Positions 22,673-47,124 are shown, numbered from the stretch's first letter. The stretch: DNA of 64,000 nucleotides from an uncultured Candidatus Saccharibacteria bacterium (GCA_964414295.1 CAYPVU010000010.1:6937-70936); one strand, 5' to 3'. Notes: generated from the sequence alone by a model not told the origin. Program-made: numbers and translations.

Positions 22673-23761
22673 TTATGGATATAAAGAAATATTTAGTAAG
22701 TGTTCATTGTATGTTTCTGAAAAGTAAATGTTTGCAGCTTTGTCGTGTCTAAAGTAATAATAAGATGACTCTTTTGGATAGATAGCTGCATATATAGATT
22801 GAATGCCTGGACTATTAATTGGAGTTGGAACTAATCCAGCATATTTATATGAATTATAAGGATTGTCTATTTGTGTTTCCTCAATTGTTGATCTTGGGTC
22901 ATCTCTTCTAGTAAAAAAATTAATTGTTGCATCAGACTGTAAAGGCATACCATCTGCAATTCTATTGTGGAATACACTTGAAATCATTTGTCTATCATCG
23001 CTCCCACCGGATTCTTTATCAATAATTGAAGCTAGTATTAATGCATCATAAAAGGTTGGTGTTTCTGGAGTAAAATTATAGTCTTCTAAATTAATATTAT
23101 TCTCTTCTAATCTTTTTATTAATGTTTCAATTTGTTTTTCAATTACAAATTGTGCGGTAGTATCTCCATCGAAGTTATAAGTATCGGGATATAGGAATCC
23201 AATCAATGGCTTATCCGCAGGTTTATGTTGGTTTATAAAGGTTTGTATATTATTACTAAAAATATAATTCTCAGGATTTTCTGCAATGTCTATATATTCA
23301 TTTGCAGAAAACTTTTTCATTTCACCTACTTCATTAAATTTTTCATCAATAATAGCAGCTGCTTGATCGGGTCTTAGTGCCTCTCTAAGAGTTACCCATA
23401 TATTCTTTTTAAATACCCCAGTTTCTAACTGAGCTATCAATTTATCAAGTGTAAGATTTTGAGGAATATCATAGGTACCTGGCTTTATGTTTGCGGATAC
23501 ATCATTAAGTCTTAAATATACCTTTAAAGCTAACTCACTATTTATTAATCCTTCTTTTTCTAATTTAGGAGCAATAGAAGTTAGATTTTCACCCTCATTA
23601 ATTGTAAACGATACTGTTTCAGCTTCTTGCGTAGGTGGATTATTAATTGCACCTGTATACCAATTAAAAGCAATAAATCCTGCAATAGAAACTAAAATAA
23701 GGATAATTAGTATTAGCGATAAAATCGTTTTTATTGGATTATGTTGTCTTTCACCTCTCAT
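22673..23761 (-). CDS. mltG: Endolytic murein transglycosylase MltG (YceG family)
   Basis: N-terminal TM and YceG signature LILASIIDKESGG...VFHNRIADGMPLQSDATINF. Confidence 0.85.
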   Translation of the reverse strand: MRGERQHNPIKTILSLILIILILVSIAGFIAFNWYTGAINNPPTQEAETVSFTINEGENLTSIAPKLEKEGLINSELALKVYLRLNDVSANIKPGTYDIPQNLTLDKLIAQLETGVFKKNIWVTLREALRPDQAAAIIDEKFNEVGEMKKFSANEYIDIAENPENYIFSNNIQTFINQHKPADKPLIGFLYPDTYNFDGDTTAQFVIEKQIETLIKRLEENNINLEDYNFTPETPTFYDALILASIIDKESGGSDDRQMISSVFHNRIADGMPLQSDATINFFTRRDDPRSTIEETQIDNPYNSYKYAGLVPTPINSPGIQSIYAAIYPKESSYYYFRHDKAANIYFSETYNEHLLNISLYP

Positions 23762-24153
23762 TATATATTCTTAAAATCTAAATATTCCTGAAGTATTATT
23801 CTAGCAGATTGACTGTCTAAATTCCCTTTTCTATTATCCTTAACTATTTTGCCTGCCATTTTACTAGTCATTACTTCATTCCAAAATTTTGTAGATACTC
23901 TATACCTTTCTTCTAGATCTAAAGCAAAGTCTTTAATTTGATTAGACATTTGAGTAGGTTTTTCCTCATGACCTAAAGGCAGACCTAATAAAATAGTATT
24001 TGGCGAATATTTTTTAATTAGCTTTCCTATTTCTTCTATTAATTCTTCATAGGAAGTGTAAACTATTGCATCTACTGCAAGTGCAATACTTTCTGTATCT
24101 TCAGATATCGCTACCCCAACTCTTTTTGTTCCATAATCTAATGCAATTATCAT
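23761..24153 (-). CDS. ruvX: Holliday-junction resolvase-like RuvX/YqgF
   Basis: MIIALDYGTKRVGVAISED start and an RNase H-like fold size of 130 aa. Confidence 0.85.
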   Translation of the reverse strand: MIIALDYGTKRVGVAISEDTESIALAVDAIVYTSYEELIEEIGKLIKKYSPNTILLGLPLGHEEKPTQMSNQIKDFALDLEERYRVSTKFWNEVMTSKMAGKIVKDNRKGNLDSQSARIILQEYLDFKNI

Positions 24154-27136: not shown

Positions 27137-28384
27137 ATGAATCAGGCTTTGCCTTTACAAAATTCCAATCCAGTTAACACGCCAATGCAGCCTCAGCAGG
27201 TTCCTTTGCAGCCTCCACAGACACCAGTTTCGTCTTCTGTTCCCGCTAGTCAGCCAGCTGCTTACGATATTGATGTTTATGACGAAATTTCGGTTTTAAA
27301 AAAGAAGATAGAAGAGGCAAAATTACCTCAGCAATTAAAGGAAAAAGCTCAGGGTATGATCTTAAGACTTATTAAGATGTCTCAAAAAGGAAACTTTTCT
27401 GCTGAATTTGAACCAGTTTCTGAATATATAAACTGGATTACTAAGCTTCCATTTGGAGAATATACTACAGATAACATTGAGATTGATGATGTTAAATCTA
27501 CGCTAGATAAATATAATTATGGTTTAGAACCAGTTAAAAATAGAATTTTAGAATATCTTGCAGTTTTAAAATTACAAAATAAAACTAATTTACCTGAAGG
27601 TGCAGGTGAAATGGATGTTTCCGCAGAAATGATGAGGTTGCAGGGTAACTCTTCTCATGCTCCAATCTTATGTTTTGTAGGTATTCAAGGAGTTGGTAAG
27701 ACTTCTATGGCAAAAGCAATTGCTAATGCTTTAAATAGAAAATTTATGAGATTGGCATTAGGAGGTATGGGGAATGTAACAGAAATAAGAGGTATTCCAA
27801 GAGGTAATGTAGATGCTGAGCCAGGGCAAATTGTAAAATCTTTAATTAGAACAGGAGTGATGAATCCATTAATCTTATTGGATGAAATTGATAAAACAAG
27901 TGCGCAGAGCGGTGTAAGAACAGATGTTATGGCTGCTTTACTCGAAATCTTAGATCCTGAGCAAAATTCTACTTTTATGGATAAATATCTAGATTATCCA
28001 CTAGATTTATCTCAGTGTATTTTTATTTGTACGGCAAATAACTTGGGAGGTATTACTGCGGCTCTGTTAGACCGTTTAGAAATAATTCGTTTTGGTAGTT
28101 ATACAGATAACGATAAGGTTATGATTGCAAGAAATTATTTATTGCCAAAAGTTAGGGAAGCTACCGGATTAGGTGAAGACCAGCTTGCTTTTGCAGAAGA
28201 TGTTTGGCCAATGGTAATTAGGCCATTAGGTTTTGATGCTGGAGTAAGGCAGTTAGAAAGAACTTTAACTGAACTAGCTAGAAAAGTTGCATTACAAATT
28301 GTTAGAGGAACAGTTAAAAGTGTTCAAATAACAAAAGAAAATTTTAGAGAGTACATTCCAGAAGATATTGGAGTTTACTCATAA
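27137..28384 (+). CDS. Lon-like AAA+ ATPase domain protein without protease domain
   Basis: Pro/Gln-rich N-terminus and coiled coil. Lon-type AAA+ module (FVGIQGVGKTSMAKAIANALNRKFMRLALGG; LDRLEIIRFGSYTDNDKVMIARNYLLPK). The ORF ends right after the AAA+ helical subdomain, so there is no S16 protease region. Confidence 0.7.
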   Translation: MNQALPLQNSNPVNTPMQPQQVPLQPPQTPVSSSVPASQPAAYDIDVYDEISVLKKKIEEAKLPQQLKEKAQGMILRLIKMSQKGNFSAEFEPVSEYINWITKLPFGEYTTDNIEIDDVKSTLDKYNYGLEPVKNRILEYLAVLKLQNKTNLPEGAGEMDVSAEMMRLQGNSSHAPILCFVGIQGVGKTSMAKAIANALNRKFMRLALGGMGNVTEIRGIPRGNVDAEPGQIVKSLIRTGVMNPLILLDEIDKTSAQSGVRTDVMAALLEILDPEQNSTFMDKYLDYPLDLSQCIFICTANNLGGITAALLDRLEIIRFGSYTDNDKVMIARNYLLPKVREATGLGEDQLAFAEDVWPMVIRPLGFDAGVRQLERTLTELARKVALQIVRGTVKSVQITKENFREYIPEDIGVYS

Positions 28385-28409
28385 AAAAAGAGGCTTTCGC
28401 CTCTTTTTT
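28384..28409. terminator. Bidirectional terminator between convergent genes
   Basis: aaaaaagaggc-tttc-gcctctttttt. Confidence 0.65.
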
Positions 28410-28977
28410 ATGAATTTAAGTAATTCTTATAATCTTTATCCTTTTTCATCATTTGCTCTAAAGCATTTCTTACAATTTGAGCTTTATGCATTCTTTTTGT
28501 TGTTGATGACCAGTCTAAGTATCTATCTATTTCTGGAGAAATAATTAGAATGAACTTAGAATCTAATCTTTTTGCTGCTTCTTTTACAGACTCTTCGATT
28601 ATAGTTGTGATATTACCTTTGTGATACTTGTTGTGCATTAAGCTTTTTGATTTATTTCCATGCACAATAGGATTCACTTTATCGTTTGATTCTTCATTTT
28701 CTAATGCAATTACAAACTTTTTTTCATTAAAAGCTTTTGCAATTTCATATCCTACTTTACTATCAGACTTAGATACTTCAGCTATAACAATATCAGTATC
28801 TTTTAAAGATTTATCTGAATGAGAAAAAAGTTTTTCTGCATGTTCAACTGTTTTAGCATGATGTCCAGTAGTATCTACAACATTATGCCCTAATTTTTTA
28901 AGGTGGGAAACACCTTCCATAAACGCCTTCATGTCTTTTTCATCAAAGTTCAAAGGCAATGATATATATATTTTCAT
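28408..28977 (-). CDS. Hypothetical protein with Rossmann-like N-domain and C-terminal ribbon-helix-helix-like segment
   Basis: C-terminal FILIISPEIDRYLDWSSTTKRMHKAQIVRNALEQ resembles a CopG/RHH beta-alpha-alpha unit; the N-terminal 100 aa has an alpha/beta pattern. Confidence 0.3.
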   Translation of the reverse strand: MKIYISLPLNFDEKDMKAFMEGVSHLKKLGHNVVDTTGHHAKTVEHAEKLFSHSDKSLKDTDIVIAEVSKSDSKVGYEIAKAFNEKKFVIALENEESNDKVNPIVHGNKSKSLMHNKYHKGNITTIIEESVKEAAKRLDSKFILIISPEIDRYLDWSSTTKRMHKAQIVRNALEQMMKKDKDYKNYLNS

Positions 28978-29126
28978 TCAATCTAACCTTAAAATTTATA
29001 TATAGGAATTATATCACGCGACTGTTACAATTGTAAACTTTTTCCTTATAAATAAACCCTCCTAGAGTTCTATTTAAATCATAAGTTTTCTGATATATTA
29101 TTATAGGTTTGTTCAATTTTCATTAA

Positions 29127-30350
29127 ATGTTTGGAAACAATAGAAATAAAAAAACAGTTAGTCGTAGCTCTAATTATCATCTGGCTGTAGATATTGGTAC
29201 TGAATTTGTTAAATCTGCAGTTTTTAAAGTAGAGGATGAAGAAGTTGTTATTTTAGGCTATAGTCGTATAAAGCAAAAAGAATCCTCAATGTATGCAGCT
29301 TTTATAATTAATCTACAGGCAGTAATAGAGGCCTGTGATAAAGGCATTGGTGAGGCTGTTGCGCAAGCAATGCAAAAAGAGGGAGAAGATTTTGTAATCC
29401 CTTCTGATGTAATTATAGGTATTGCAGGAGAATTGGTGCACGGAGTAACTATAATGGTAAATGTAGAAAGAGATAATCCTTCCTCCAAAATTACACAAAG
29501 AGAAGTTGATAAATTTGTAGAAAAAGTTAAAAAATACACTTTCTCCAGTACAGTTGAAGAAATTTCGAGAGAAATGGGACTTAAGGCAAGTCAGGTAATT
29601 GAGGTTAATACTGCAATAAACAGTGTCTACATAGATGGAATAAAAGTTTCTAATCCTTTAGGATACACAGGTAATGAACTTATATATAAGGTATTTTCTA
29701 CCTTTGCACCAAAAATTCATTTGGATTCAATTAATCAAGTAACAAATGCTTTAAATCTAAAGCTTAGTAAAATAGTTGTAGAGCCTTATGCGTTAGCAGT
29801 AGGGCTTCAAAATATGAGAGATCCAAATGCCAATGCAATTATTATTGATGTAGGTGGTGGAACAACCGATGTTGCTTTAGTAAGTAATGGAGATATTGTA
29901 GGTACAAAAATGTTTGCAATTGGAGGAAAAGTTTTTACTAAAAGAGTTCAAAGAGAGTTAGGGGTAAGTTACGAAGAAGCAGAAAAGATTAAAATTGATT
30001 ATTCAAATGGAGCTGTAGATAAAGATACGGATCAAAAGTTAACTAAGGCCTTTGAAATGGATATTTCTACTTGGTTAACAGGGGTAGAGATTGCACTGGA
30101 AGGTTTTCAGGATGTAGAAGAATTCCCTTCTCAGATATATATTTGTGGAGGAGGAGCCTTGCTGCCAGAGATTCAAGAAGGTTTATTAACATATCCATGG
30201 TTACAGACTTTGAATTTTAAAAAGTTCCCAAAGGTCAGCTTTATCTTTCCAAATGCATTAAATGGTGTTTTGGATAGAACAAAAAGCGCTACATTACCAA
30301 TGGATGTAACGCCTTTAGCATTAGCAAGAATGTATTTAGATAATTTGTAA
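29127..30350 (+). CDS. Actin-like ATPase of the FtsA/PilM family (paralogue distinct from ftsA at the window start)
   Basis: Phosphate-1 (HLAVDIGTEFVK), phosphate-2/adenosine (IIIDVGGGTTDVALV; YICGGGALLP) motifs and a FAIGGKVFTKRVQRELGVSYEEAEKIKIDY connect region; 407 aa. Confidence 0.65.
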   Translation: MFGNNRNKKTVSRSSNYHLAVDIGTEFVKSAVFKVEDEEVVILGYSRIKQKESSMYAAFIINLQAVIEACDKGIGEAVAQAMQKEGEDFVIPSDVIIGIAGELVHGVTIMVNVERDNPSSKITQREVDKFVEKVKKYTFSSTVEEISREMGLKASQVIEVNTAINSVYIDGIKVSNPLGYTGNELIYKVFSTFAPKIHLDSINQVTNALNLKLSKIVVEPYALAVGLQNMRDPNANAIIIDVGGGTTDVALVSNGDIVGTKMFAIGGKVFTKRVQRELGVSYEEAEKIKIDYSNGAVDKDTDQKLTKAFEMDISTWLTGVEIALEGFQDVEEFPSQIYICGGGALLPEIQEGLLTYPWLQTLNFKKFPKVSFIFPNALNGVLDRTKSATLPMDVTPLALARMYLDNL

Positions 30351-30366
30351 TTTTTATTTAGAAAAA

Positions 30367-32475
30367 GTGTCTATATCATCATCAGAAAAAATTTTTATAG
30401 ACCCAAGGGAAGAGATTACCTTTATAGTTGAGCGTTTATTAAAAGCCGAAAAAGATCGTATTATTTTGGTTGTCCCTCAGAATTCTTTGTTATTAAGTAG
30501 TTTAGTAAGTATAGATATTTTATTTAGAAAGTTAGTAAGAACTAAAAAGTTAGCAGTTATTGTTACTGAGGATGAATACGGTAAAGCTATTTCTTCTAAA
30601 GCTGGCTTTGTAGTTGTAGATAAGGTTAGTCAGATTACGAATGATCAATGGAACTTGGCAAATAATAAAAAGATGACTATTAAAGAGGTCCTTGATGAAA
30701 GAAAAGAAGCACTTTTAGCAAATATTAGTGGGGAGCATAAGTCAGTTGTAGACTTACCAGAACTCCCAGATGTAGAAGCAGAGGAGTTTGTGGTATCAGC
30801 AAATGAATTAAATGAGAGTGTAGAGGAGGATAATAAGACTTTTGAGGCAGTTCTTGAAGAACAAAATCTAGAAGATGGAGTGACTGAAGACATAATGGAA
30901 GATGAATATATTGAAGAACCTATTGTAGAAGAAAAAAGCATTGAAGAAAAAGAATTGGAATCATCTTTAAAGAAATATGCCAAACCTAGAAGAGAAGCTA
31001 AAGAAATTGATTTAGATGGTATAAAGCTTATCTCTGGAGGTGATGTAAAGTCTTTCATTGATTCTTTAGATAGTGTTAAAATGGCAAGTAATAATTCATT
31101 TACTCAAATGTCAGACGAAAAAAGCTTTGAACGAAAAATTAAAAAGGTTGGTTCATCTTCTTTTACAGGAAAAGATTTTACTAAACAAATAACTGAAAAA
31201 GGCGGAATTGGAGCTTTCTTTTCCAAATTCAGTCTAAAAAGAAGAAATCCTGATTTTAGAGACGAAAATGACTTCGTAAAAAAAAAGAATAGAAAAAGAA
31301 TTCTTTTAATTACATTTCTTATATTTCTATCGCTATTTGCAGGTAGCGGGTATATACTTGCATTCCAAGTATCTTCTGTAGATATTAATTTAAAATTAAG
31401 AGCACAGGATGTAAGTACTTCAGCTACTATACTAGTTAGTACAAAGGTAACAGAAATGAGCTTGGAATCTCCAATTACTATTCCTGCTAAAGAGTATTCA
31501 ATCTTACCAGAGAATTTAAGTATTTCTAAAACAGGTACCGCTGATGGAAGTGCTAAAAGAGGTGTTAAGTCTAAAGGTGTTGTTACTATTTATAACTTAC
31601 AAACCGAAAGTGTAGACTTGCCTGCAGGAGCCAAATTTAAAAATCTAACTAATAATTTAACTTATTTATTAGTTTCTGCTGTTACATTAGAGCCTGCTAC
31701 AGTAGCTGCAAATATTAAGACCCCAAGTTCTAAAGATAGTATTGCATTAGAAGCAGAAGCATTTGGTCCTCAATACAATATTGAAGTAGATGAAAAAACA
31801 AGATTTAGTATTGAAAACTACAGCACAGAAGAAGAGGTAAGTGCTACAGCATTTCAATCATTTACAGGGGGAACAGAAGAATCATTTACATCTGTTTCTC
31901 AAGAGAATTACGACAAGTTAAAAGATACTATAGTACCTGATTTAAAAAAGCAGGGGTTAGAAAGATTAAAAAGCTTAACAGAAAATGGTTACCAATTAAT
32001 TGAAGGTACAGTTGTTTACGATGAATCTAAGCAGCCAGAAGCTTTCCCTAAAGTTGGAGAAGAGGCTAAAGATAAAACATTTAATTTAACAGTACAAATA
32101 GGAATTAAAGGATTTGCAGTTAGGACTCAGGATTTAATAGAGGCTGTAAGTACAGTACTTAAAAATAATACCCAAAATAATGGTTCTGGAGATTTACAAA
32201 TAGATGATATTGCTGATCCGCAAATTGATAAAGTAGAAAAAAATGGAGATGATTATGTTTTAACAGTTTCTTCTAAAGGATCAGTTAAAACCCAAATAAC
32301 ACAAGAGCAGATGAAAAAAGATATTGCAGGTTTATCTATAAAGCAGGCCGAGGATTATTTTAGACTAATTGATTATATTGAAAGCTATAACTTAAGCTTT
32401 AATCCTGGTATTGTTCCAGAAGGTCTGCAGAGAGTGCCTTCGGATACTGCAAGAATTAACATTAGGACAAGATAA
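30367..32475 (+). CDS. Bitopic membrane protein (310-aa cytoplasmic N-region, one TM, about 370-aa extracytoplasmic domain), partner of the upstream actin-like ATPase
   Basis: Acidic low-complexity linker, TM RILLITFLIFLSLFAGSGYILAF, and a Ser/Thr-rich extracytoplasmic region; 17-nt gap to the upstream gene. Confidence 0.45.
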   Translation: MSISSSEKIFIDPREEITFIVERLLKAEKDRIILVVPQNSLLLSSLVSIDILFRKLVRTKKLAVIVTEDEYGKAISSKAGFVVVDKVSQITNDQWNLANNKKMTIKEVLDERKEALLANISGEHKSVVDLPELPDVEAEEFVVSANELNESVEEDNKTFEAVLEEQNLEDGVTEDIMEDEYIEEPIVEEKSIEEKELESSLKKYAKPRREAKEIDLDGIKLISGGDVKSFIDSLDSVKMASNNSFTQMSDEKSFERKIKKVGSSSFTGKDFTKQITEKGGIGAFFSKFSLKRRNPDFRDENDFVKKKNRKRILLITFLIFLSLFAGSGYILAFQVSSVDINLKLRAQDVSTSATILVSTKVTEMSLESPITIPAKEYSILPENLSISKTGTADGSAKRGVKSKGVVTIYNLQTESVDLPAGAKFKNLTNNLTYLLVSAVTLEPATVAANIKTPSSKDSIALEAEAFGPQYNIEVDEKTRFSIENYSTEEEVSATAFQSFTGGTEESFTSVSQENYDKLKDTIVPDLKKQGLERLKSLTENGYQLIEGTVVYDESKQPEAFPKVGEEAKDKTFNLTVQIGIKGFAVRTQDLIEAVSTVLKNNTQNNGSGDLQIDDIADPQIDKVEKNGDDYVLTVSSKGSVKTQITQEQMKKDIAGLSIKQAEDYFRLIDYIESYNLSFNPGIVPEGLQRVPSDTARINIRTR

Positions 32476-32546
32476 GCAGATAGGTTAAGCCTTTTGACCT
32501 TTCCCCCGTTGACAGTCAGAATAAATTTGATATTATTATTAGGTAC

Positions 32547-32561
32547 TGGCACTAGGTGCCA
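32547..32561 (+). promoter_or_regulatory. Palindrome TGGCAC-TAG-GTGCCA between a sigma70-like promoter and groES (candidate heat-shock operator; not a canonical CIRCE)
   Basis: Perfect 6+3+6 inverted repeat about 30 nt upstream of the groES ATG. TTGACA (32509-32514, one of two nearby TTGAC motifs) and TATTAT are upstream. No TTAGCACTC-N9-GAGTGCTAA seen. Confidence 0.3.
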
Positions 32562-34637: not shown

Positions 34638-34964
34638 ATGGGTAATTTATTGTTTGTCTTTTACTGGTGGTATTTTGTACTAGTTAAAGATTTTTGGCAA
34701 AACTATGTAATAGGAAGATTAGTTTATAATCTTAATCTTACAAATACTTTGCCTATGGCTAAGCATATAACTGATCCTTTGTTTCAAGATGATTCAGGAT
34801 TAGGAAAGTCCTTTAGCTTTGTAATAAGATTCATTTGGATAGGCATAGGCTCTTTTATGAGTGTAATTGTTACAATCCCATTTTTATTATTTGGATTATT
34901 TTTATTAATAGTTCCTTTTTTACCAATAATTCAATTTATTAGGTATATTTCGTTTTTAGTATGA
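34638..34964 (+). CDS. Small hydrophobic membrane protein, translationally coupled to the Clp ATPase gene
   Basis: Three to four TM helices; ATGA overlap with the downstream gene. Confidence 0.35.
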   Translation: MGNLLFVFYWWYFVLVKDFWQNYVIGRLVYNLNLTNTLPMAKHITDPLFQDDSGLGKSFSFVIRFIWIGIGSFMSVIVTIPFLLFGLFLLIVPFLPIIQFIRYISFLV

Positions 34965-37540
34965 ATGGAAAAGTCATATTAGCTAAATATAAAAGTGCAC
35001 AGATTACAGTTGATTTTTCTTCACTATCTTTCTTTAAAGGTGATAAATTCTCAATTTATAAACTAGAATTAAATGCTGCTAAATTACTGAATATATTTAC
35101 AGCAATAATTGTATTCGTGCCGTTATTAATACTTATTATGAATGCTGAGTTTTCTATCGGCTCACTTATTAATCCTTCAAACTTATTAGAATATATTCCT
35201 TATTTAGGCATTTACACATTTATATTTGCTAGATTTTTAGGAAGAGATAGAGATAAGTTTGATCATATAATTAAAAATTATAATTTGTTAAAAGTAAGTA
35301 AGGAATTAGAACAAGGTAAATCACTTTCGATAGAAATTACTGAATACATGGATTTCGAAACTCTTTGTTTATTGGATTCTGTACTGGAGGATAAAGATCA
35401 TCCGTTTATTGTAAACATTTGCAGGTTGCTAATAAAGAATAAAGAAATAGAGTACTTTTTAACTAATCGTATAGGCGTAAATTCAGACAGATTTATAGAG
35501 TTATTAAGTAAGAATGCTAATAATCCAAACTTTACATTAAGTAATTCTTATAGAACTTTCTTTTTATATTTGTTTGATGAAGCAATAAAACTGGAATCAA
35601 ACAGAATAAATAAATATGTTCTATTTTTTGTATTAAATAAATACTTTCTAAGAAGTCTTTACTTTGAATTAGGAGTAGGGGAGCTTGAACTAGAAGGCTT
35701 AAGAGTATGGTTTAAAAACGAAACGAAACAAAAGGAATATTATATTAAATGGGAAAAACTTTCAAAATTAAAACCTAAGGGTGATGTAAATAGAGCCTAT
35801 ACATCTAGGGTTACCCCTGTATTAGATGAATATGCTGAAGATTTTACTAAGCAGGCTGCTTTGGGTTTTTTTATGCTATCTGTTGGTAAAGATCAAGAAA
35901 TGAATAAGGTTGTTGAAATTATGGAAAGAGGTAAATCAACTCCATGTTTAATTTTAGGGGAACCTGGTGTGGGTAAAACAAGATTTATAAGACATTTAGC
36001 AACAAGAATGGTGGTTGAGGATGTTCCATCGAGACTATACGATCATAGACTATTAATTGTGGATTTAAATAAGATTTTAACTCAAGTAGGAACAGTAGAT
36101 ATCTTTAAGCAGACTTTGCAAAGAATGTTCGAAGAAGTCCGTTACTCAGGAAATGTAGTTTTGGTTTTAGAAGAATTCAGTCAAATCCTAAATATTAGAG
36201 AAGAAGCAAAACTGGAAGTTGTTAACTTAATTGTAAATGCAGTAGACAGTTTAAATTTAAGAATAATTGCTACTTCTAATAATGCCAGTTATTCTAAATT
36301 TATTAAGCCTCTTAAAAATCTTGCTGCATTATTTGAAGTAGTTAATTTAAAAGAGCCTTCTTCTAATGTTGCATTACAGATTTTAATTGATGAAGTCCCG
36401 AGGGTAGAAAAAAAATATAAGGTTAGTGTAAGAGTTAATGCTTTAAAAAGAATTGTAGAGTTTGCACCAAAGTTTGACCAAGACAGAGTAATGCCAGATA
36501 AAGGCATTGATTTGCTGGAAGAAGCTTGTTTAGCAGCAAAAAATAGAGGATTATCTTTTTTAGATGTATCTACAGTTGATGAAGTCCTATCAGAAAAAGT
36601 AGGGGTAAAAGTAGGTAATTTATCGGAGGCAGAAAGTCAAACTTTAATGTCTTTGGCTACTAAAATGCACGAAAGAGTAATCGGTCAAGATGAAGCTATT
36701 ACAGCCATAACTTCTGCAATAAAAAGATCAAGATCCGGTTTATCTGTAAGCAAAAGACCTATTGCATCCTTTCTTTTTTATGGACCTACTGGAGTGGGTA
36801 AAACAGAGGTGGCAAGAACTTTGGCAGATGTATATTACGGAAGTGAAAATCTTTTAATTAGACTTGATATGTCTGAATACCAAGAAGATCAGAATTTAAA
36901 CAGAATAATTGGATATACAGACGAGAAAGGTAACTTTATTGGTGGACATTTAACTGAATCTGTTAGGTCAAGACCATTCTCGCTTGTATTACTTGATGAG
37001 ATTGAAAAAGCTAATAAAAAAGTATTAGATTTATTCTTACAAGTTCTTGATGAAGGTACACTCACAGACGGTTTAGGCAGAAAGGTAGATTTTACAAATA
37101 CTGTAATTATTATGACATCTAATGTTGGTTCGGACTTAATTGCTAAAGAAATAGTTGAGGGTAAAAAGTACCATGACGTAGAAAAAGATGTTTCTCAAAA
37201 GTTAAGGGAGTATTACAGAATTGAATTTTTAAATAGATTTGATAAATTAATAATGTTTAGACCGCTAAATAGGATTGAAATTGAGCAAATAGTACTTTTA
37301 ATGTTAAAAAAAATAAATGATAATTTAATGCAGAAGGGTATAAGTTTTAGTTGGAACGAAAATACATTGATTGAATTGGCCAATATGGGTTATAGTCAGA
37401 TGTTCGGTGCCAGAGAGTTAAAAAGAGTAGTTCAAGAGAATATTGAGGATAAATTGGCGGATTTAATTATTCAAGGTAAGTTAAGAAGCGGTACAGAAGC
37501 AGTTTTTAATGGATTAACTGTTCAACAAGTGGTAAATTAG
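34961..37540 (+). CDS. Clp/Hsp100-family AAA+ ATPase (two nucleotide-binding domains) with a novel TM-containing N-terminal region
   Basis: D1 Walker A LILGEPGVGKTRF. D2 Walker A FLFYGPTGVGKTEVA, sensor/linker LMSLATKMHERVIGQDEAI and Walker B LVLLDEIEKA. Hydrophobic helix at residues about 42-62. No long ClpB M-domain and no obvious ClpP-docking IGF/LGF loop. Confidence 0.8.
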   Translation: MNGKVILAKYKSAQITVDFSSLSFFKGDKFSIYKLELNAAKLLNIFTAIIVFVPLLILIMNAEFSIGSLINPSNLLEYIPYLGIYTFIFARFLGRDRDKFDHIIKNYNLLKVSKELEQGKSLSIEITEYMDFETLCLLDSVLEDKDHPFIVNICRLLIKNKEIEYFLTNRIGVNSDRFIELLSKNANNPNFTLSNSYRTFFLYLFDEAIKLESNRINKYVLFFVLNKYFLRSLYFELGVGELELEGLRVWFKNETKQKEYYIKWEKLSKLKPKGDVNRAYTSRVTPVLDEYAEDFTKQAALGFFMLSVGKDQEMNKVVEIMERGKSTPCLILGEPGVGKTRFIRHLATRMVVEDVPSRLYDHRLLIVDLNKILTQVGTVDIFKQTLQRMFEEVRYSGNVVLVLEEFSQILNIREEAKLEVVNLIVNAVDSLNLRIIATSNNASYSKFIKPLKNLAALFEVVNLKEPSSNVALQILIDEVPRVEKKYKVSVRVNALKRIVEFAPKFDQDRVMPDKGIDLLEEACLAAKNRGLSFLDVSTVDEVLSEKVGVKVGNLSEAESQTLMSLATKMHERVIGQDEAITAITSAIKRSRSGLSVSKRPIASFLFYGPTGVGKTEVARTLADVYYGSENLLIRLDMSEYQEDQNLNRIIGYTDEKGNFIGGHLTESVRSRPFSLVLLDEIEKANKKVLDLFLQVLDEGTLTDGLGRKVDFTNTVIIMTSNVGSDLIAKEIVEGKKYHDVEKDVSQKLREYYRIEFLNRFDKLIMFRPLNRIEIEQIVLLMLKKINDNLMQKGISFSWNENTLIELANMGYSQMFGARELKRVVQENIEDKLADLIIQGKLRSGTEAVFNGLTVQQVVN

Positions 37541-37559: not shown

Positions 37560-37943
37560 ATGAATAAAAAAAGAGCTTTAGTTTTAACTATTGTTGCATT
37601 ACAAAGTCTTTTTATTACTATGCCCTTATTGGCTCAGGGACTTACTAATGTAAATCAGAACTTTCAAATTCCTAACCCTACCAGATACGGAGACCTTGAA
37701 GATATTATAAATGCAGCTACTTCTTTAATTCGACCTGTATTTATAATAACTTTTGCTGCCATGGTTTTATATGGAGGATGGGTTAGATTAACATCTCAAG
37801 GTAATCCAGATAAAATTAAATCCAGCTCTCAAATTATAGTTGCTGCAATTGTTGGATTTGCAATCGCTGTATTTGCTCCTACAATAGTAGACTTTGCTGG
37901 TAGATTATTAGGGGTAAGCGGAGGTTTAATTGGCGAACGATAA
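37560..37943 (+). CDS. Pilin-like secreted two-helix protein, paralogue 1 (VirB2/TrbC-like architecture)
   Basis: Signal peptide ...PLLA|QG, hydrophobic helix, loop RLTSQGNPDKIK, second hydrophobic helix; 127 aa. Confidence 0.5.
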   Translation: MNKKRALVLTIVALQSLFITMPLLAQGLTNVNQNFQIPNPTRYGDLEDIINAATSLIRPVFIITFAAMVLYGGWVRLTSQGNPDKIKSSSQIIVAAIVGFAIAVFAPTIVDFAGRLLGVSGGLIGER

Positions 37944-37944
37944 T

Positions 37945-38547
37945 ATGAAGAAAGCTTTATTACTAACAATCATTTCTTTTTTAACAATAGGGATTGTTGT
38001 TAATGCACAGACGGGGAGTGGTCAATGCGATGCTCCTTATTATATTCCTTCTGCTTGTCCAGCTCCATATAGGCCGGGAATAAGCGGGGGTTATACTGCA
38101 GACTTAAATTGTCAATTAGAAAAATTTACAGATCCTCAAAGTAACTGTTGTCCAAATAAATGTGTAACTGCAGATGGTTCATCAAATGCTGGAGCGCAAA
38201 ATCCAGACTTATTTTGGGATATAGATGTTTTTGGTACCGTTATGAGAATTAATCCTGACAATACACCTGTTCTTATTAATATACTATTTACCACGGTTTT
38301 AGGCTTAGTATCTTTATATGCTATTGTTAGGGGGATCTATGTTACTGGTGTAAAAAGAACAATGGCTACTACTCCTGACGAAATTGCAGAAATAAATAAA
38401 GAACTTACAAACCTTATTATAGGTGCAGCTCTTTGTTGGGGGTTCATAATCTTAATACAAGTGGTTGCAAACTTCTTAGGTGTTGGTTCTTTAAGCAGTT
38501 TAGATTTTAGTAGCGGAGATTCCGGTACTGTTATTATTGTAAATTAA
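37945..38547 (+). CDS. Pilin-like secreted protein, paralogue 2 (Cys-rich variable region)
   Basis: Start set at MKKALLL, immediately after the upstream stop. Signal peptide ...VNA|QT; eight Cys in the variable segment; two hydrophobic helices. Confidence 0.45.
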   Translation: MKKALLLTIISFLTIGIVVNAQTGSGQCDAPYYIPSACPAPYRPGISGGYTADLNCQLEKFTDPQSNCCPNKCVTADGSSNAGAQNPDLFWDIDVFGTVMRINPDNTPVLINILFTTVLGLVSLYAIVRGIYVTGVKRTMATTPDEIAEINKELTNLIIGAALCWGFIILIQVVANFLGVGSLSSLDFSSGDSGTVIIVN

Positions 38548-39113
38548 TGAAAAAATTTATTATTGTATCTTTATTAATTTTGTTTCTTTCTCCAATTACA
38601 ATCTTTGCTCAAGATAGGTCAGGAGGGAGTGCAAATTCAACTACCTCTACACAAGATATTGATGATGAAATTGGGTTAAGAGAAATTAGAATTCCTATTT
38701 TTAGTAGTTTTATAGATTTTGATACTGAGAATGCAAGTATTTTTAGTTGGATATCGTTTATCGGATCTTTAGCTACAATTGGCTTAGTAGTTTTTTGGAT
38801 ATTTTTATTAGTTAAAGCAGGTGTAAAGGGAATGCAAAGCCAAGGAAATGCTGAGAACTTAACTGGGGCATTTAAGCAGGTGCAATCCGTATTGATTGGG
38901 GCCGCTGTAACGCTTTTCTTTCCATTTGTTTTGAGTTTAATAGGACTCTTTTTTGGTATAGGTACTATTTTTAGCTGGCCAAAGATGTTTCAATTATGCG
39001 ATAAGTCATCAAATCCAAATGGATTTGACTTTTATTTTCAATATTTAATCAGTATTGGATCAGAAGGCGATGAAGCTGCCGCTGAAAGCGCTTGTAATCC
39101 ACTAGGAACATAA
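38547..39113 (+). CDS. Pilin-like secreted protein, paralogue 3
   Basis: TAATG overlap. Signal peptide ...IFA|QD; helix, loop MQSQGNAENL, helix; C-terminal Cys pair. Confidence 0.45.
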   Translation: MKKFIIVSLLILFLSPITIFAQDRSGGSANSTTSTQDIDDEIGLREIRIPIFSSFIDFDTENASIFSWISFIGSLATIGLVVFWIFLLVKAGVKGMQSQGNAENLTGAFKQVQSVLIGAAVTLFFPFVLSLIGLFFGIGTIFSWPKMFQLCDKSSNPNGFDFYFQYLISIGSEGDEAAAESACNPLGT

Positions 39114-39116
39114 TTT

Positions 39117-39551
39117 ATGAGAAAAATTATATTAATCATTTTTATTTCTTTACTAAGTTTAATTCCGGTGAGTATTAAAGCTCAATCTGCATCTGAATTC
39201 CTTCCTTGTAATCAGTACGATCCAAGTGTATTTGATGCTTGCGGTACAAATGTAAATGATCAAGTAACTAATTTAATAAAGGTTGCAATTTCTGCGGTTT
39301 TTGCTTTAATAGTATTGTACGGTATTTTCTTGATAATTAAAGCAGCACTTACTATAATAAGAAGCAATGGAGACCCAGGACAGGTGCAAAGTGGAGCAGA
39401 TATTTTAAGAGGTGTATACATTGGTATTGGAATTATTTTTGTAGGTTTGATAGGATTAATAATCGTTATTGCATTTTTTGGTGCAGAGGGTATTTTGAGT
39501 ACTAATGTTAATACACCAGGAAATACAGTAATACCATTAATTACAAATTAA
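39117..39551 (+). CDS. Pilin-like secreted protein, paralogue 4
   Basis: Signal peptide ...IKA|QS; Cys pair; helix-loop-helix core IKAALTIIRSNGDPGQVQSG...FVGLIGLIIVIAFFGAEG. Confidence 0.5.
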   Translation: MRKIILIIFISLLSLIPVSIKAQSASEFLPCNQYDPSVFDACGTNVNDQVTNLIKVAISAVFALIVLYGIFLIIKAALTIIRSNGDPGQVQSGADILRGVYIGIGIIFVGLIGLIIVIAFFGAEGILSTNVNTPGNTVIPLITN

Positions 39552-39573
39552 TTTAATTTATTAAATAAATCTT

Positions 39574-40068
39574 ATGTTTAAAAATAAGACTTTAGTAGCA
39601 GTAATGATGGGAGCTTTTCTATTGGCAGCGCCATTAGTATCTCCTTTATTAACTGCAAAAGCAGATAACTTAATCTGTACAGTTTTCCCATTTATCAATA
39701 GTGTTACAGCTTTTGGTATTAATGCATTATGTTCAGAAGGTGGAATTAGTGCAGATACAACAAGTAATACAATTAGAAGTACATTCAACTTAATTGTATC
39801 TTTAATCTTTGTTGCAATTATTATCTTCTCAATTTACGTAATAATTAAAGCAGCTATTAAATACATTAGAAGTGAAGGTGATCCAGCTAAAATTGAAGAA
39901 GCTCAAAAAGCAATTAAATCTGTATTCATTGGTATTGCAGCTTTATTTGTAGGATTAATCGGAATTATTATTGTTATTGCATTCTTTGGTGCAGGTGGAG
40001 CATTAAACTCGGATCAAAATGCAGTAAATACAAGTCCATTATTAAACTCAATCTTAAACGGAAATTAA
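39574..40068 (+). CDS. Pilin-like secreted protein, paralogue 5
   Basis: Core nearly identical to paralogue 4: IKAAIKYIRSEGDPAKIEEAQK...FVGLIGIIIVIAFFGAGG. Confidence 0.5.
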   Translation: MFKNKTLVAVMMGAFLLAAPLVSPLLTAKADNLICTVFPFINSVTAFGINALCSEGGISADTTSNTIRSTFNLIVSLIFVAIIIFSIYVIIKAAIKYIRSEGDPAKIEEAQKAIKSVFIGIAALFVGLIGIIIVIAFFGAGGALNSDQNAVNTSPLLNSILNGN

Positions 40069-40084
40069 TTAATTTTAATTTCTT

Positions 40085-40113
40085 AAAGCCCGCCTTTTGG
40101 CGGGCTTTTTTTT
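40085..40113 (+). terminator. Rho-independent hairpin within the pilin-like array (possible attenuator after paralogue 5)
   Basis: aaagcccgcc-tttt-ggcgggcttt followed by a T8 run. Confidence 0.6.
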
Positions 40114-40177
40114 ATCTTCTTGATAAGCTATTATCTTTAATCTATAGTGTATTGAGTATTAATGTTATTATCTTCTC

Positions 40178-40990
40178 ATGAATAAAAAGAAAAAATTAGT
40201 TTATTTACTTCTTTTGCTTAATCTCTTTTTTGGTCAATTTGCGGTAGTACATGCACAATTACAGACCTTTGATTTCTCCGCCAATAATCCAGAAAGCTAC
40301 CAATGTTTTAATAAAGAAACAGGAGAGATATTAGATATACCCGTTGAGCCAACTCCGGACGAATTTGGTAATTACTATTGTAATAATGGAGGAACTAGAG
40401 TTATAGCTCAATTAAAACCTCCTACACTCCAGCAATTAGAAGTTTGGTTTGTTAGAATTTTATACGCAATTTGGGGTCTTGTGGCTTCTTTATCCTTTCT
40501 ATTCTTAGTTAAGTTAGGATACGAATACACAATATCTAGAGGGGACCCTACAAAGATAACAGAAGTAAGAAAAAGAATTGTAAGTTATTTAATAGGTTTT
40601 GCTCTTGTATTTTTAGCTGTCCCAATATTAACTACAGTATTTAGATTGTTAGGCATTAATACTAATGCGCAGTGTTATAACGTTAATATGCCTGGCTTTA
40701 GATTCTTTTATGCTACATTATGTACCGACCCTAAGGGAGTGATCGCATCTAAATTTGCCTCTAATCCGTGTCAGGCATTTATTGATGGAGAAGCGCCAGA
40801 AGGTATTACTTGTAGCGGAACTCCTTATGCGGGTGGTGCACCAGTTACATGTGGTGTAGTTGGTTTAGCTTCAATTTCATTAACATGCCAAGTTCAAGAA
40901 GGAGATAGCCCAGGTGCATCAACGTGGTGTAGAACATCAACTTTATTTGGCTTTTGCTCATCATCGTGTAACCCATCGGGTTGTCCATAA
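40178..40990 (+). CDS. Pilin-like secreted protein, paralogue 6, with extended Cys-rich C-terminal domain
   Basis: Signal peptide ...VHA|QL; helix-loop ISRGDPTKITEVRK-helix; about 120-aa C-terminal tail with 12 Cys. Confidence 0.45.
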   Translation: MNKKKKLVYLLLLLNLFFGQFAVVHAQLQTFDFSANNPESYQCFNKETGEILDIPVEPTPDEFGNYYCNNGGTRVIAQLKPPTLQQLEVWFVRILYAIWGLVASLSFLFLVKLGYEYTISRGDPTKITEVRKRIVSYLIGFALVFLAVPILTTVFRLLGINTNAQCYNVNMPGFRFFYATLCTDPKGVIASKFASNPCQAFIDGEAPEGITCSGTPYAGGAPVTCGVVGLASISLTCQVQEGDSPGASTWCRTSTLFGFCSSSCNPSGCP

Positions 40991-42489
40991 TGATTCAATT
41001 TATTAGTTTAAAAAAAAATAACGTTCAAATTAATTTATTGGAAAGTTCAATAGATTTGAACACGCTTGAAGATCTTGTTAAATTACTTAATAGGGATTCT
41101 AGTATTGATATTGAATTAGCATTTAAAATTAATAAAGCTAATAGATCAGAGCAGTTTTTAATAAATAAGACTTCAATTTTAAAAGAGGGAAATGTAATAG
41201 AAGAGAATTCTTTTTTTAATCTAGTAAAAGCTGAACTAGGAATTATTTTAGATGCTAATATTCTAAAAAGTAGATTCCTAGAAGCAAGTAGTTTAAATGA
41301 TCTAGAAGCTTCTTTCAATTCTTTAAACTTAACAACTGATCCAGAGTTAGAAACTAAGATAAACTCTAAAACTCAACAACAAACAGAATTAAAAACTCAA
41401 CTTCTTAATACTTTAGATGAAGATCAAAAGAGTAAATTTACTAGATTAGAAGAGGTTACTCAGAGGATTGCATCTATTCAGGTTCAGGTAGATTTTTACC
41501 AAAATGAAAAGAAAATAAAAGAAGAACTTAATAGTAATATAAAAAAATATAAGATTGATAAAGAAAATATCAATCAAATGCTTCAATCCGTAGAGTTGTT
41601 AATAGAAAATAAAGAATCGTTAAATTTAAAACTAAAGTCCTTTGAGCAATTTAGTGATTCTTACGATAAAGTTAAGGAATTAAAAGCTCAAAAAATCAAC
41701 TATCTGAACTCTAAATTATCTATAAGACATTCACCTGGATCCTCAATTTTAGAAGACGATATTAAGGAAGCTGAAAATAAATCTAGTTCACTAAATTTAT
41801 TCTTAGTAATTCCAATTATAAATTTATTGATAACATTTGTAGTTTTTTTAGTTACTTATAATGCAGCGGTACTTTTAATCGGAATCCTTTTTACTGTATT
41901 CTTAATGATTATTTATATTGTATCTAGATTTTTTAAAGATTCATTAGAAGATGTTGAAGAATTAAATAATAAAGCATTTTCTCCCCAAGCGGATTCTAAA
42001 GAAGGTGTTGCAGAAGTAGAAGACCCAAATACTCAATTATTTATAAATAGTGCATGGGCTAAAGCAATAAAAGATGAATTAGAAGTTGTAGATGAAAATA
42101 TTACAAAAAGCTTAAATGGGAAGTCTTATGAGGCTCTAAAGCAGGATCTTACAAATTTAGATTTAAATATAGAAAAAGAAAATAATAAATTGGAAGAGTT
42201 AACTCAAAAAGCAATAACCTCAGATGAGTACTATAAAAAAAGAAGAGAAATAGATATTTTAAAAATCGAAAAAGAGAATCTGGAATATGGTTTAAAGTTA
42301 GAGCCTACCATAAATAATAAAATACAAGATTTATCAAAAGAAATAGAAAATTTAAAGCTATTAACAGAAATGGGACAGAAAACTAATGCTTTAGTGCCCG
42401 TTTTTATCAAATTTAGTGAGAATTTGCCTCAAATTGAGCAAATTAAGCAAATAATTAGTGCACAGGTAATTCTCGTAGGGTTAAATTAA
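40981..42489 (+). CDS. Coiled-coil membrane protein (central TM hairpin)
   Basis: Long heptad-rich N- and C-terminal regions flank an approximately 45-aa hydrophobic segment LFLVIPIINLLITFVVFLVTYNAAVLLIGILFTVFLMIIYIV; overlaps the upstream gene by 10 nt. Confidence 0.45.
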   Translation: MSIMIQFISLKKNNVQINLLESSIDLNTLEDLVKLLNRDSSIDIELAFKINKANRSEQFLINKTSILKEGNVIEENSFFNLVKAELGIILDANILKSRFLEASSLNDLEASFNSLNLTTDPELETKINSKTQQQTELKTQLLNTLDEDQKSKFTRLEEVTQRIASIQVQVDFYQNEKKIKEELNSNIKKYKIDKENINQMLQSVELLIENKESLNLKLKSFEQFSDSYDKVKELKAQKINYLNSKLSIRHSPGSSILEDDIKEAENKSSSLNLFLVIPIINLLITFVVFLVTYNAAVLLIGILFTVFLMIIYIVSRFFKDSLEDVEELNNKAFSPQADSKEGVAEVEDPNTQLFINSAWAKAIKDELEVVDENITKSLNGKSYEALKQDLTNLDLNIEKENNKLEELTQKAITSDEYYKKRREIDILKIEKENLEYGLKLEPTINNKIQDLSKEIENLKLLTEMGQKTNALVPVFIKFSENLPQIEQIKQIISAQVILVGLN

Positions 42490-42504
42490 AGTTATAATCT
42501 AGTT

Positions 42505-43290
42505 ATGTCTAATAATACCTCAGGTAATCAGAATAATGGAGAAAATAACGGATCTAATAATTCGTTTAGCTACCCACAGCCTGTTTATCCTGGAAGTATG
42601 GCAAACCCATTTAACGGGTATTACTATTATCCTTCTAATATGCAACAACCACAAAATAATAGAGATTACATATTAAAGATGAGAGAGCAGGAGGCTAATA
42701 AAATTGTTCCAGAAAAAAAAGGAATGCCTTGGTCTTCAATTATTTTAAAGCCTAATTTAGTATTCGAAACACAAAATCCTAACGAAAAGGTTTTTGTTTT
42801 AGTAAGGGCACATTGGTTAACTAATCTAGGATGGTTTTTAAGAAATCTTTTCTTAGCAATTCTTCCATTTATAGTATTCTCTTTACTAGAATATTTCGGA
42901 ATTCGAATTGATTTAACCTTTATAGGCAGTAAAGCTTCTACAATCTTAGGACTGCTTTATTATTCTTTTATATTTACAAGTATAGTAAGTAACTTTATTG
43001 ACTGGTATTTTGACCCATTTATAGTTACTGATATTCGTATAATGGATTATGACTATAAGCCTTATTCAAATTATAAAGTTTCCGAAGTTAACTTACAGGA
43101 TATTCAAGAAGTAAAGGAAAGATCTGCAGGTTTAATTGGAGATATCTTTAATTTTGGAAACGTTTATATCTATAGTGCCAGCGATAGAACAGAAATGATT
43201 TGTTCTAACGTGCCTTCACCTACAAAAGTTAGAGATATTATTATCGATTTATCTACCGTAGCTAAAACATATAAATATGACAATCTCTGA
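42505..43290 (+). CDS. Membrane protein with Asn/Gln-rich N-terminus, TM pair and bacterial PH-like (bPH_2/YdbS-like) C-domain (tentative)
   Basis: Two TM helices followed by a region DIRIMDYDYKPYSNYKVSEVNLQDIQEVKERSAGLIGDIFNFGNVYIY resembling bPH_2 proteins. Confidence 0.4.
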   Translation: MSNNTSGNQNNGENNGSNNSFSYPQPVYPGSMANPFNGYYYYPSNMQQPQNNRDYILKMREQEANKIVPEKKGMPWSSIILKPNLVFETQNPNEKVFVLVRAHWLTNLGWFLRNLFLAILPFIVFSLLEYFGIRIDLTFIGSKASTILGLLYYSFIFTSIVSNFIDWYFDPFIVTDIRIMDYDYKPYSNYKVSEVNLQDIQEVKERSAGLIGDIFNFGNVYIYSASDRTEMICSNVPSPTKVRDIIIDLSTVAKTYKYDNL

Positions 43291-43498
43291 ACTATTAACA
43301 CCTGAAATAATTGAGTTTATTAAAGTTATTGCAATTATTATTGGATTAGTACATTTATTAGCTGGATTTATATTAGTATTCCAGACTTTTAGAATGAATC
43401 GAATTATAAAAACCCCGAATGCTCCTATTTTTAGTATTATTGCAATTGTCTACATTGCTGTATTAATGGCTACGTTAATTTTAATCTTGAGTGCATAG
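43277..43498 (+). CDS. Small two-TM membrane protein
   Basis: 73 aa, two hydrophobic helices; overlaps the upstream gene by 14 nt. Confidence 0.35.
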   Translation: MTISELLTPEIIEFIKVIAIIIGLVHLLAGFILVFQTFRMNRIIKTPNAPIFSIIAIVYIAVLMATLILILSA

Positions 43499-43554
43499 AA
43501 TACATTTTCTTTTTTGATATACTGTTTTAAGGATAGTTAATCTTTTTAAAGTAT

Positions 43555-46053: not shown

Positions 46054-46055
46054 AC

Positions 46056-46511: not shown

Positions 46512-46513
46512 AT

Positions 46514-47065: not shown

Positions 47066-47124
47066 TTCTTACTTAACTGCAGAGGGAAAATAATCTATAA
47101 TAAAGCGAATTATATATTTAATAA

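Follow-up and report, generated by a model that had tools for sequence, protein, structure and literature searches.

A candidate Patescibacteria-specific envelope module that pairs an SHS2-type actin-like ATPase with a Baseplate_J-like membrane protein

In the alignment complex of type IVa pili, the SHS2-type actin-fold ATPase PilM has no evident membrane anchor and is encoded directly upstream of PilN, a bitopic protein with its N terminus inside the cell (PDB 2ych, 5eou). PilN itself offers no more than a short peptide at its N terminus and a periplasmic domain of small size, and cooperates with PilO, PilP, PilB and PilC. FtsA (PDB 7q6f, 7q6i, 4a2a), which shares the 1C/SHS2 subdomain, also binds the cytoplasmic tails of bitopic proteins. 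Here, we describe a gene pair of similar layout, which encodes an actin-fold ATPase of the FtsA/PilM type (the ATPase) and, directly downstream, a large N-in bitopic membrane protein (the partner), at positions 29127-32475 of a 64,000-nucleotide (nt) stretch of DNA assigned to an uncultured Candidatus Saccharibacteria bacterium (GCA_964414295.1, CAYPVU010000010.1:6937-70936). This whole stretch, hereafter the window, has a low G+C content (about 31%), and its closest relatives belong to Candidatus Dojkabacteria, a class of the Patescibacteria or Candidate Phyla Radiation (CPR). On balance, we lean towards reading the pair as a Patescibacteria-specific envelope module, in which an SHS2-actin ATPase is tethered by its partner: a third kind beside FtsA and PilM, and not a platform for a type IV pilus (T4P) or a type IV secretion system (T4SS).

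The nearest published counterparts are in Southlakia epibionticum, where the genes SEML1_0658 to SEML1_0651 have an order identical to mnmA-alaS-ATPase-partner-ruvX-mltG-LysM-obg (Wang et al. 2023, Cell, PMC10633639, Tables S1/S2). SEML1_0656 (427 residues), annotated as "pilus assembly protein PilM", has S. aureus FtsA as its top ECOD domain (PMC10633639, Table S2); its hidden Markov model (HMM) calls at P0/P1/P2 are NE/NE/GD (NE, non-essential; GD, growth defect), with normalised reads of 2427/660/221 at T0/T1/T2. SEML1_0655 (556 residues), a "baseplate J/gp47 family protein", carries SpoIIaa-like (6-105), beta-barrel, G3P-like and gp6 domain III ECOD domains (Table S2), and was called NE/ES/ES (ES, essential) with normalised reads of 373/34/24. 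In this transposon sequencing (Tn-seq) experiment, SEML1_0655 is thus class II essential by the definition of the paper and SEML1_0656 shows a growth defect; both are flagged as core and Patescibacteria-enriched families. Separate loci of this organism encode FtsA-FtsZ (SEML1_0174/0175) and, as SEML1_0104/0105, a canonical PilM next to a PilN-like protein (PMC10633639).

These two genes resemble the pair in gene order, in length (427 + 556 residues, against 423 + 552 at L033, a locus of the TM7 type) and in combining an FtsA-like ATPase with a partner that has a SpoIIaa-like N terminus, a beta-barrel and gp6 domain III. The Dojkabacteria version differs in its much longer acidic linker, in the lon-like gene upstream and in groESL downstream. 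SEML1_0656/0655 appear in the supplementary tables only and are treated neither as a pair nor as a third actin-like system. Wang et al. 2023 and Meheust et al. 2019 make no mention of the pair in their main texts, and full-text searches of the literature returned no description of it. A CPR-enriched "PilM" family does appear in Meheust et al. 2019, and may have absorbed the ATPase family, whose members go by the existing names "FtsA", "PilM" and "rod shape-determining protein". The two families are already catalogued under misleading names, while the pair as a defined third actin-like module appears to be undescribed.

The pair and its parts are laid out in the window as follows (AF2, AlphaFold2; pLDDT, predicted local distance difference test score; TM, transmembrane).

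29127-30350, plus strand: ATPase gene, 407 residues, ATG start, from the open reading frame (ORF) call and its translation
29424-29711, plus strand: SHS2/1C-type inserted subdomain of the ATPase, about residues 100-195, with boundaries read from the AF2 model
30367-32475, plus strand: partner gene, 702 residues, GTG start, in agreement with the aligned N termini of 29 homologues
30367-30636, plus strand: conserved N-terminal cytoplasmic alpha/beta domain, partner residues 1-90, predicted as four strands alternating with helices at pLDDT >90
30727-31266, plus strand: variable, mostly disordered acidic linker, partner residues 121-300
31300-31368, plus strand: single TM helix, hydrophobic core at partner residues 312-334 (AF2 helix 302-334)
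31372-32472, plus strand: extracytoplasmic domain, partner residues 336-702 (well modelled by AF2 over 337-701), with a GlxA-type beta-barrel and, after it, Baseplate_J/gp6-like alpha/beta domains

A preliminary description, made from the sequence of the window, had recognised a second full-length FtsA/PilM-type ATPase here, apart from an authentic ftsA beside ftsZ at the window start. That arrangement is confirmed: a partial ftsA (2-862; Pfam FtsA, 5e-25) is followed by ftsZ (1046-2218), and the translation of the ATPase gene contains both motifs that had been quoted from it, IIIDVGGGTTDV and YICGGGALLP. The spacing between the two genes of the pair, given there as 17 nt, is in fact 16 nt (30351-30366).

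The ATPase matches the Pfam families FtsA (3.4e-13), MreB_Mbl (7.7e-11) and PilM_2 (1.6e-10). Its AF2 model (pLDDT 88.8) has an actin fold with subdomain 1C (SHS2) in place of 1B, a feature common to FtsA and PilM, built in the order strand 105-114, helix 124-150, strand 157-169 and strand 184-195. Foldseek ranks FtsA first (query-normalised TM-score, TMq, 0.70-0.76; E about 5e-27), then PilM (0.54-0.65) and MreB (about 0.45), and a profile search of PDB sequences returns the same ranking; the SHS2 insertion and the low TMq set the ATPase apart from MreB. Across a 27-member family alignment (mean column identity 55%), the phosphate-1, phosphate-2 and adenosine motifs are invariant, with D22-x-G24-T25...K29, D241-x-G243-x-G245-T246-T247-D248 and G341-G343 as the nucleotide-binding residues. 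The ATP-binding site is presumably intact, judging from these motifs.

Neither the sequence nor the AF2 model of the ATPase contains a TM segment. Its C terminus is a confidently modelled helix (391-406) of moderate hydrophobic moment, which includes a conserved DVTPLALARM motif and is not preceded by a disordered linker. An FtsA-style flexible linker with an amphipathic membrane-targeting helix is not seen in the model, a purely computational result that is still compatible with membrane binding.

FtsA is the best match of the ATPase in both structure and sequence, but the ATPase falls well short of family thresholds. Its highest NCBIfam match, TIGR01174 ftsA (residues 19-309, model positions 3-270), scores 77.1 bits against a cut-off of 175.85; the FtsA model PRK09472 gives 38.4 bits (cut-off 409) and the MreB model TIGR00904 gives 33 bits (cut-off 366). 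A true MreB, encoded at L023, reaches 478 bits on PF06723. A metagenome scan with the ATPase alignment yielded 80 loci, each of which was scored with the family HMM. In 34 of them (L021-L054 and L064) we found relatives at 34-46% identity, whose near-full-length copies score at least 305 bits, and in the other 46 a canonical FtsA (62-104 bits) that is closer to the FtsA of the window and lies next to ftsZ wherever the available DNA allowed. No family-type ATPase adjoined ftsZ in these loci. A word-indexed protein search found 1,091 relatives of the ATPase.

In a neighbour-joining (NJ) tree with 100 bootstraps, the ATPase family is monophyletic (91/100), and a separate FtsA clade (87/100), which holds the FtsA fragment of the window and B. 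velezensis FtsA, excludes it. The PilM-type references in this tree are Acinetobacter PilM, reached via a fragment of M. xanthus PilM, and E. coli HofM; used as a query, HofM found no relative in the PDB and no PilM in the plasmid set. The ATPase, for which the preliminary description had suggested a phylogeny, does not nest within this small PilM/HofM sample. Because it scores far below the FtsA cut-off, coexists in the window with a separate ftsA-ftsZ and forms its own clade outside FtsA, the ATPase is, on sequence grounds, a member of an SHS2-containing actin-fold family distinct from FtsA.

The family is probably distinct from PilM as well, since no pil genes lie nearby in about 45 loci and the partner has no PilN/PilO or POTRA domain. 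The opposite reading would make the pair a T4P alignment module, with a divergent PilM and an oversized substitute for PilN/PilO, or else a platform for the pilin-like system at 37.5 kb, as the preliminary description had proposed. It can draw on the PilM/FtsA fold, on the apparent lack of a membrane anchor, as in PilM, and on the name that the NCBI pipeline gave to the Southlakia orthologue. The ATPase also passes the Pfam PilM_2 gathering score (40.9 against 27 bits), although the match is confined to residues 194-353, where the second half of the actin fold is generic, and on TIGR01175 pilM it scores 31.5 bits where the cut-off is 133. Searches for pilB, pilC, pilT, pilN, pilO, pilD and type IV pilin genes beside the pair were negative in all of the roughly 45 loci. 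We also scanned all 39 window ORFs of at least 200 residues with Pfam: no PilB, PilT or PilC was present, as the preliminary description had noted for the surroundings of the pair, and the unscanned ORFs (at most 197 residues) are too short for any of them; the scan likewise revealed no pilN, pilO, pilD or type IV pilin genes. Saccharibacteria have true PilM-PilN(-PilO) inside their T4P loci in addition to the pair: the T4P PilM of Southlakia scores 7e-44 on PF11104, and in TM7x PilM/N/O lie within T4P loci.

The second version of the pilus reading rests on VirB2-type pilin genes that follow 5 kb downstream of the pair throughout Dojkabacteria. The genes at 37.5 kb match the VirB2/TrbC-type family T4SS_pilin (PF18895) and are therefore pilins of the T4SS type and not of type IV pili. 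Only Dojkabacteria have them close to the pair, as part of the synteny of that group, and even there groES-groEL, with a promoter-like site of its own, and a Clp-type ATPase intervene; elsewhere the pair is flanked by alaS and ruvX-mltG, and pilus or secretion genes are absent from its surroundings. We know of no PilM-type component in T4SS-pilin systems. With an outer domain of the partner that is Baseplate_J-like and not of the PilN/PilO type (below), we consider a pilus function of either version very unlikely. The distinction matters for annotation, since lumping the ATPase family with T4P PilM would inflate counts of pilus components.

We also considered whether certain Firmicutes "PilM" proteins of about 715 residues are a fused version of the pair, and rejected this: they join an FtsA/PilM-like domain to ThiS-like repeats and have no TM helix. 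Examples are encoded at 2569-4728 of L103 (Anoxybacillus) and 2545-4680 of L107 (Acetoanaerobium). Their N-terminal half scores 82 bits on TIGR01174 and 70 bits on TIGR01175 and is followed by ThiS/ubiquitin-like repeats. They form their own clade in the NJ tree (98/100) and have no pil neighbours.

The partner was described at the outset as a 702-residue protein with a cytoplasmic region of about 310 residues, one TM helix and a Ser/Thr-rich outer domain. The length and topology stand, while the enrichment is modest, at 18.5% Ser + Thr in the outer domain against 13.4% in the N-terminal 120 residues. In the AF2 model (pLDDT 76.9), the N-terminal alpha/beta domain is followed by a long helix (residues 92-120). 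The linker has a net charge of -26 across residues 121-200 and includes motifs that close relatives keep, KPRxExK...DG-I..SGGDIK (with a beta-hairpin at 212-223) and FTGKDFT; across lineages it varies from 60 to 357 residues and is usually acidic. A basic KKKNRKR precedes the TM helix and implies an N-in/C-out orientation, with about 311 residues in the cytoplasm and about 367 outside. One TM helix with a basic cytoplasmic flank is present in 38/38 partners examined.

This architecture departs from that of PilN, with a folded domain of about 90 residues, a long linker and a Baseplate_J-like outer domain of about 360 residues in place of a short peptide and a small periplasmic domain. It also lacks the POTRA or SPOR domain expected of an FtsQ or FtsN. 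Its layout has an analogue in RodZ, the partner of MreB, which has a folded cytoplasmic domain of about 85 residues, a linker, one TM helix and an outer domain. The likeness is one of layout: the cytoplasmic domain of the partner is alpha/beta and not helix-turn-helix. We propose that the N-terminal domain is the docking site for the ATPase and, by analogy with PilM-PilN, that the cytoplasmic part of the partner would tether it.

In the N-terminal domain, a nearly invariant Ser-Ser (partner residues 44-45, nt 30496-30501) opens the second helix, within the motif P-x-x-S-x-L-x-S-S. In true SpoIIAA/STAS proteins a phosphorylated serine lies at a helix start, to which the Ser-Ser of the partner might correspond.

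The window partner has no Pfam match, but its outer domain can be placed through relatives and fold. Partner relatives match the GlxA beta-barrel domain PF21110, and three distant ones pass the PF04865 Baseplate_J threshold of 21.1 bits (P0227, 26.0; P0239, 29.0; P0270, 24.6). A Foldseek search of the PDB returned GlxA (5.6e-7) and the baseplate wedge proteins of phages phi812 and A-1(L) (7e-6 to 3e-5); the top matches of the partner in the viral library BFVD are Baseplate J-like, and a profile search reached Mu-type gp47 (E 0.006). FtsQ homology had been raised as a possible outcome for the partner; comparisons with Pfam, PDB profiles and Foldseek gave no similarity to FtsQ/POTRA, PilN or PilO. 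These fold and profile matches support homology of the outer domain to phage and contractile baseplate wedge proteins (PF04865; T4 gp6, Mu gp47, P2 J), with which it shares the arrangement of a beta-barrel and alpha/beta domains. Unlike them, the partner is anchored in the membrane, fused to a cytoplasmic domain and encoded outside phage or contractile gene clusters.

The homology raises the prospect that the Baseplate_J-like domain does the work at a host-contact surface structure, for example an organelle for adhesion or attachment, or a baseplate of contractile-injection or phage origin that has degenerated, with the ATPase as a cytoplasmic regulator. Both families are Patescibacteria-enriched, and such families are strongly enriched among epibiotic-growth genes, many of which encode envelope proteins; moreover, the requirement for the partner sets in only after T0, while the cells grow on the host. 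However, the vicinity of the pair contains no sheath, tube, spike or gp25 gene and no further baseplate or phage gene in any locus, and one Baseplate_J-like domain anchored in the membrane by a TM helix does not make a baseplate. PHROG matches are nearly absent (1/5 partner-family members), neither gene matches PADLOC, and the surroundings are housekeeping genes (a tRNA synthetase gene, ruvX, mltG, obg, groESL). The present data fit host contact and envelope growth alike, and we regard a dedicated host-contact structure as unlikely. A reading of the pair as a defence system was rejected on the PADLOC result for the two genes.

Like the ATPase gene, the partner gene is genuine: it has 47 relatives of full length, and its profile picks up 11,753 cluster representatives, of which 4,219 reach E<=1e-30. 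The count of 11,753 overstates the paired family, as it includes ectodomain-only paralogues of about 500 residues without an ATPase neighbour. One example is a Baseplate_J-type protein of 496 residues (P0303; L101, 7001-8491), whose gene is flanked by dnaE and thrS, without an ATPase gene beside it, in a genome close to 1 Mb in size. Genomes of Patescibacteria type thus seem to have paralogues of the partner that consist of the ectodomain alone.

The pairing of the two genes, which the preliminary description had noted, holds well beyond the window. They are adjacent in 14/14 Dojkabacteria loci, where the synteny of the whole region is high and adjacency is weak evidence. Beyond Dojkabacteria, the partner lies directly downstream of the ATPase in 30/32 informative loci. 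Across the loci, Dojkabacteria included, the two genes are spaced by 0-137 nt, mostly below 40 and with some overlaps, and every paired partner retains the N-terminal domain, the single TM helix and the outer domain. The pair persists while its flanks change entirely, between alaS/ruvX, lon/groES and serS contexts. The source names given to partner clusters include "Patescibacteria group" as well as TM7/Saccharibacteria and Moranbacteria. The L033 partner clusters at 90% identity with cdiviTM7_03019, a member that carries a TM7 label, and the pair is found in a Doudnabacteria-labelled genome too. Searches that started from the partner added little: a contig scan with its alignment found only Dojkabacteria-type genomes, a genome-contig scan with the single protein gave no matches, and a word-indexed search with a diverse alignment returned almost only matches already known. 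The pairing is near-obligatory and specific.

Most loci outside Dojkabacteria have the order mnmA-alaS-ATPase-partner-ruvX-mltG(YceG)-CHAP/LysM hydrolase-obg, and a true mreB is close to the pair in two loci; nearness to cell-wall genes (mltG, hydrolases, sometimes mreB) is another likeness to MreB-RodZ. The window has its own copies 5 kb upstream of the pair, with ruvX at 23761-24153 and mltG at 22673-23761, both on the minus strand. An alternative account is that the two genes are mere neighbours in a conserved housekeeping string, or are tied to a groESL stress operon, and have no joint function. The Dojkabacteria synteny and the recurrence of groES-groEL after the partner would fit this account. 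Against it stand the integrity of the pair where the flanks change completely, the short gaps, and the progressive Tn-seq depletion of both orthologues. The signals around the pair in the window also bear on the groESL version.

29073-29101, plus strand: weak sigma-70-like promoter candidate TTTAAA-17-TATTAT, 9/12 matches, 5' of the ATPase gene
32509-32536, plus strand: strong promoter-like site TTGACA-16-TATTAT with extended TG, ahead of groES, at the 3' boundary of the unit

The weak candidate is suggestive only, as comparable sites are equally frequent in shuffled sequence, but the upstream neighbour is on the opposite strand, so the transcription unit must begin 5' of the ATPase gene. With that neighbour on one side and a strong promoter-like site belonging to groES itself on the other, the ATPase and partner genes look like a separate two-gene unit, and the sequence suggests that groESL is transcribed separately. 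We therefore rejected a chaperone link, which is in addition absent from most lineages, and hold the account of mere neighbours to be very unlikely.

The palindrome that lies between the -10 element and the groES start, TGGCACTAGGTGCCA (TGGCAC-TAG-GTGCCA), is perfect and could be an operator; it differs from the classic CIRCE sequence. The ORF lister starts groES at a GTG at 32556, and the true start is likely the ATG at 32593, in line with homologues of about 100 residues.

Several observations weigh against a third actin-like envelope module. Some family members are named PilM by the NCBI pipeline, and in the NJ tree the nearest neighbours of the ATPase family are PilM/HofM, a weak sister placement (40/100) that involves two references and a tiny sample of PilM. 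Pairing has two exceptions among the 32 informative loci, one rearranged (L035) and one with no partner within the 416 nt available (L044), and at L019 a partner stands without an adjacent ATPase. The gene string alaS-ruvX-mltG is ancient and conserved, and the pair may sit in it without a functional link; groES-groEL follows the partner not only in Dojkabacteria but in three other lineages (L015/L016, L019 and L020). As for the fitness data, SEML1_0656/0655 are probable orthologues of the pair on the basis of gene order, length, annotation and domain architecture, and depletion of the partner may partly reflect polarity on the overlapping ruvX, a gene with an essential pattern. Polarity is countered by the much better tolerance of insertions in the upstream ATPase gene.

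With these points taken into account, we still favour a partner-tethered envelope module, and the ruvX-mltG-CHAP/LysM neighbours (sometimes with mreB), the housekeeping surroundings and the fitness defects of the Saccharibacteria orthologues make a role in cell-envelope growth, division or budding likely. A divergent division or elongation complex, which the preliminary description had also considered, is possible and is the direction we favour. By analogy with PilN-PilM, FtsN-FtsA and RodZ-MreB, the cytoplasmic domain or linker of the partner would recruit the ATPase to the membrane; the ATPase would then self-associate in an ATP-dependent manner and so organise, or send signals to, the outer domains, which may oligomerise as baseplate wedge proteins do. 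A bolder version, which we put forward only tentatively, is a third lineage-specific actin-like system beside FtsA and MreB/PilM, in which the tethered ATPase polymerises at the cytoplasmic side of the membrane and, through its STAS-like/TM/Baseplate_J-like partner, organises an extracellular ring or scaffold. The unusual growth of these epibionts would depend on that scaffold, for example in polar budding or when envelope is inserted at the pole that contacts the host.

A large part of bacterial diversity belongs to the Patescibacteria, ultra-small bacteria whose genomes are tiny and whose cell biology is almost unknown. The pair, kept across very distant lineages of this group, joins a cytoskeletal-type ATPase to an envelope-spanning partner of unprecedented architecture. 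Its distant conservation, Patescibacteria enrichment, importance in Tn-seq and architecture therefore mark it out as a good candidate for a machine, specific to these lineages, that serves division, growth or the envelope. In Southlakia epibionticum, a cultured relative that is open to genetic work, the hypothesis is directly testable.

The neighbouring genes of the window include further conserved elements. Upstream of the pair, a Lon-like protein (27137-28384, 415 residues) comprises the AAA+ module and lid only (TIGR00763 positions 252-572 of 795), without the protease domain, and has a Pro/Gln-rich N terminus; its gene is kept upstream of the pair throughout Dojkabacteria and at L017. Between them, and divergent from the ATPase gene, lies a gene for a protein of 189 residues (28408-28977, minus strand) with weak similarity, below the Pfam cut-off, to nucleoside 2-deoxyribosyltransferase or TIR-like proteins. 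Its position is kept in Dojkabacteria and at L017/L018, and its PADLOC match is marginal.

Downstream, an array in the region 37560-49584 encodes six small proteins that all have a signal peptide and two TM helices; PF18895 is matched by two of the six. After this pilin array come a coiled-coil membrane protein of 502 residues, an 832-residue protein without a Pfam match and a VirD4/TraG-like coupling protein (47125-49584). The region also includes smpB and one small ORF, interspersed among these genes, and resembles the T4SS-like system of Patescibacteria that has been reported to be essential in Southlakia. Directly upstream of the array, a Clp-type double-AAA+ protein (34638-37540, 859 residues; AAA_2, ClpB_D2-small), whose hydrophobic N-terminal stretch of about 100 residues looks membrane-embedded, is preceded by a membrane protein of 108 residues, and the two keep this position across distant Patescibacteria loci. 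Elsewhere in the window, a sortase is encoded just downstream of ftsZ (2655-3518, minus strand), a fused HEPN-nucleotidyltransferase protein at 4950-5804, and a tyrosine recombinase/integrase beside tRNA genes at 51150-52019 (minus strand).

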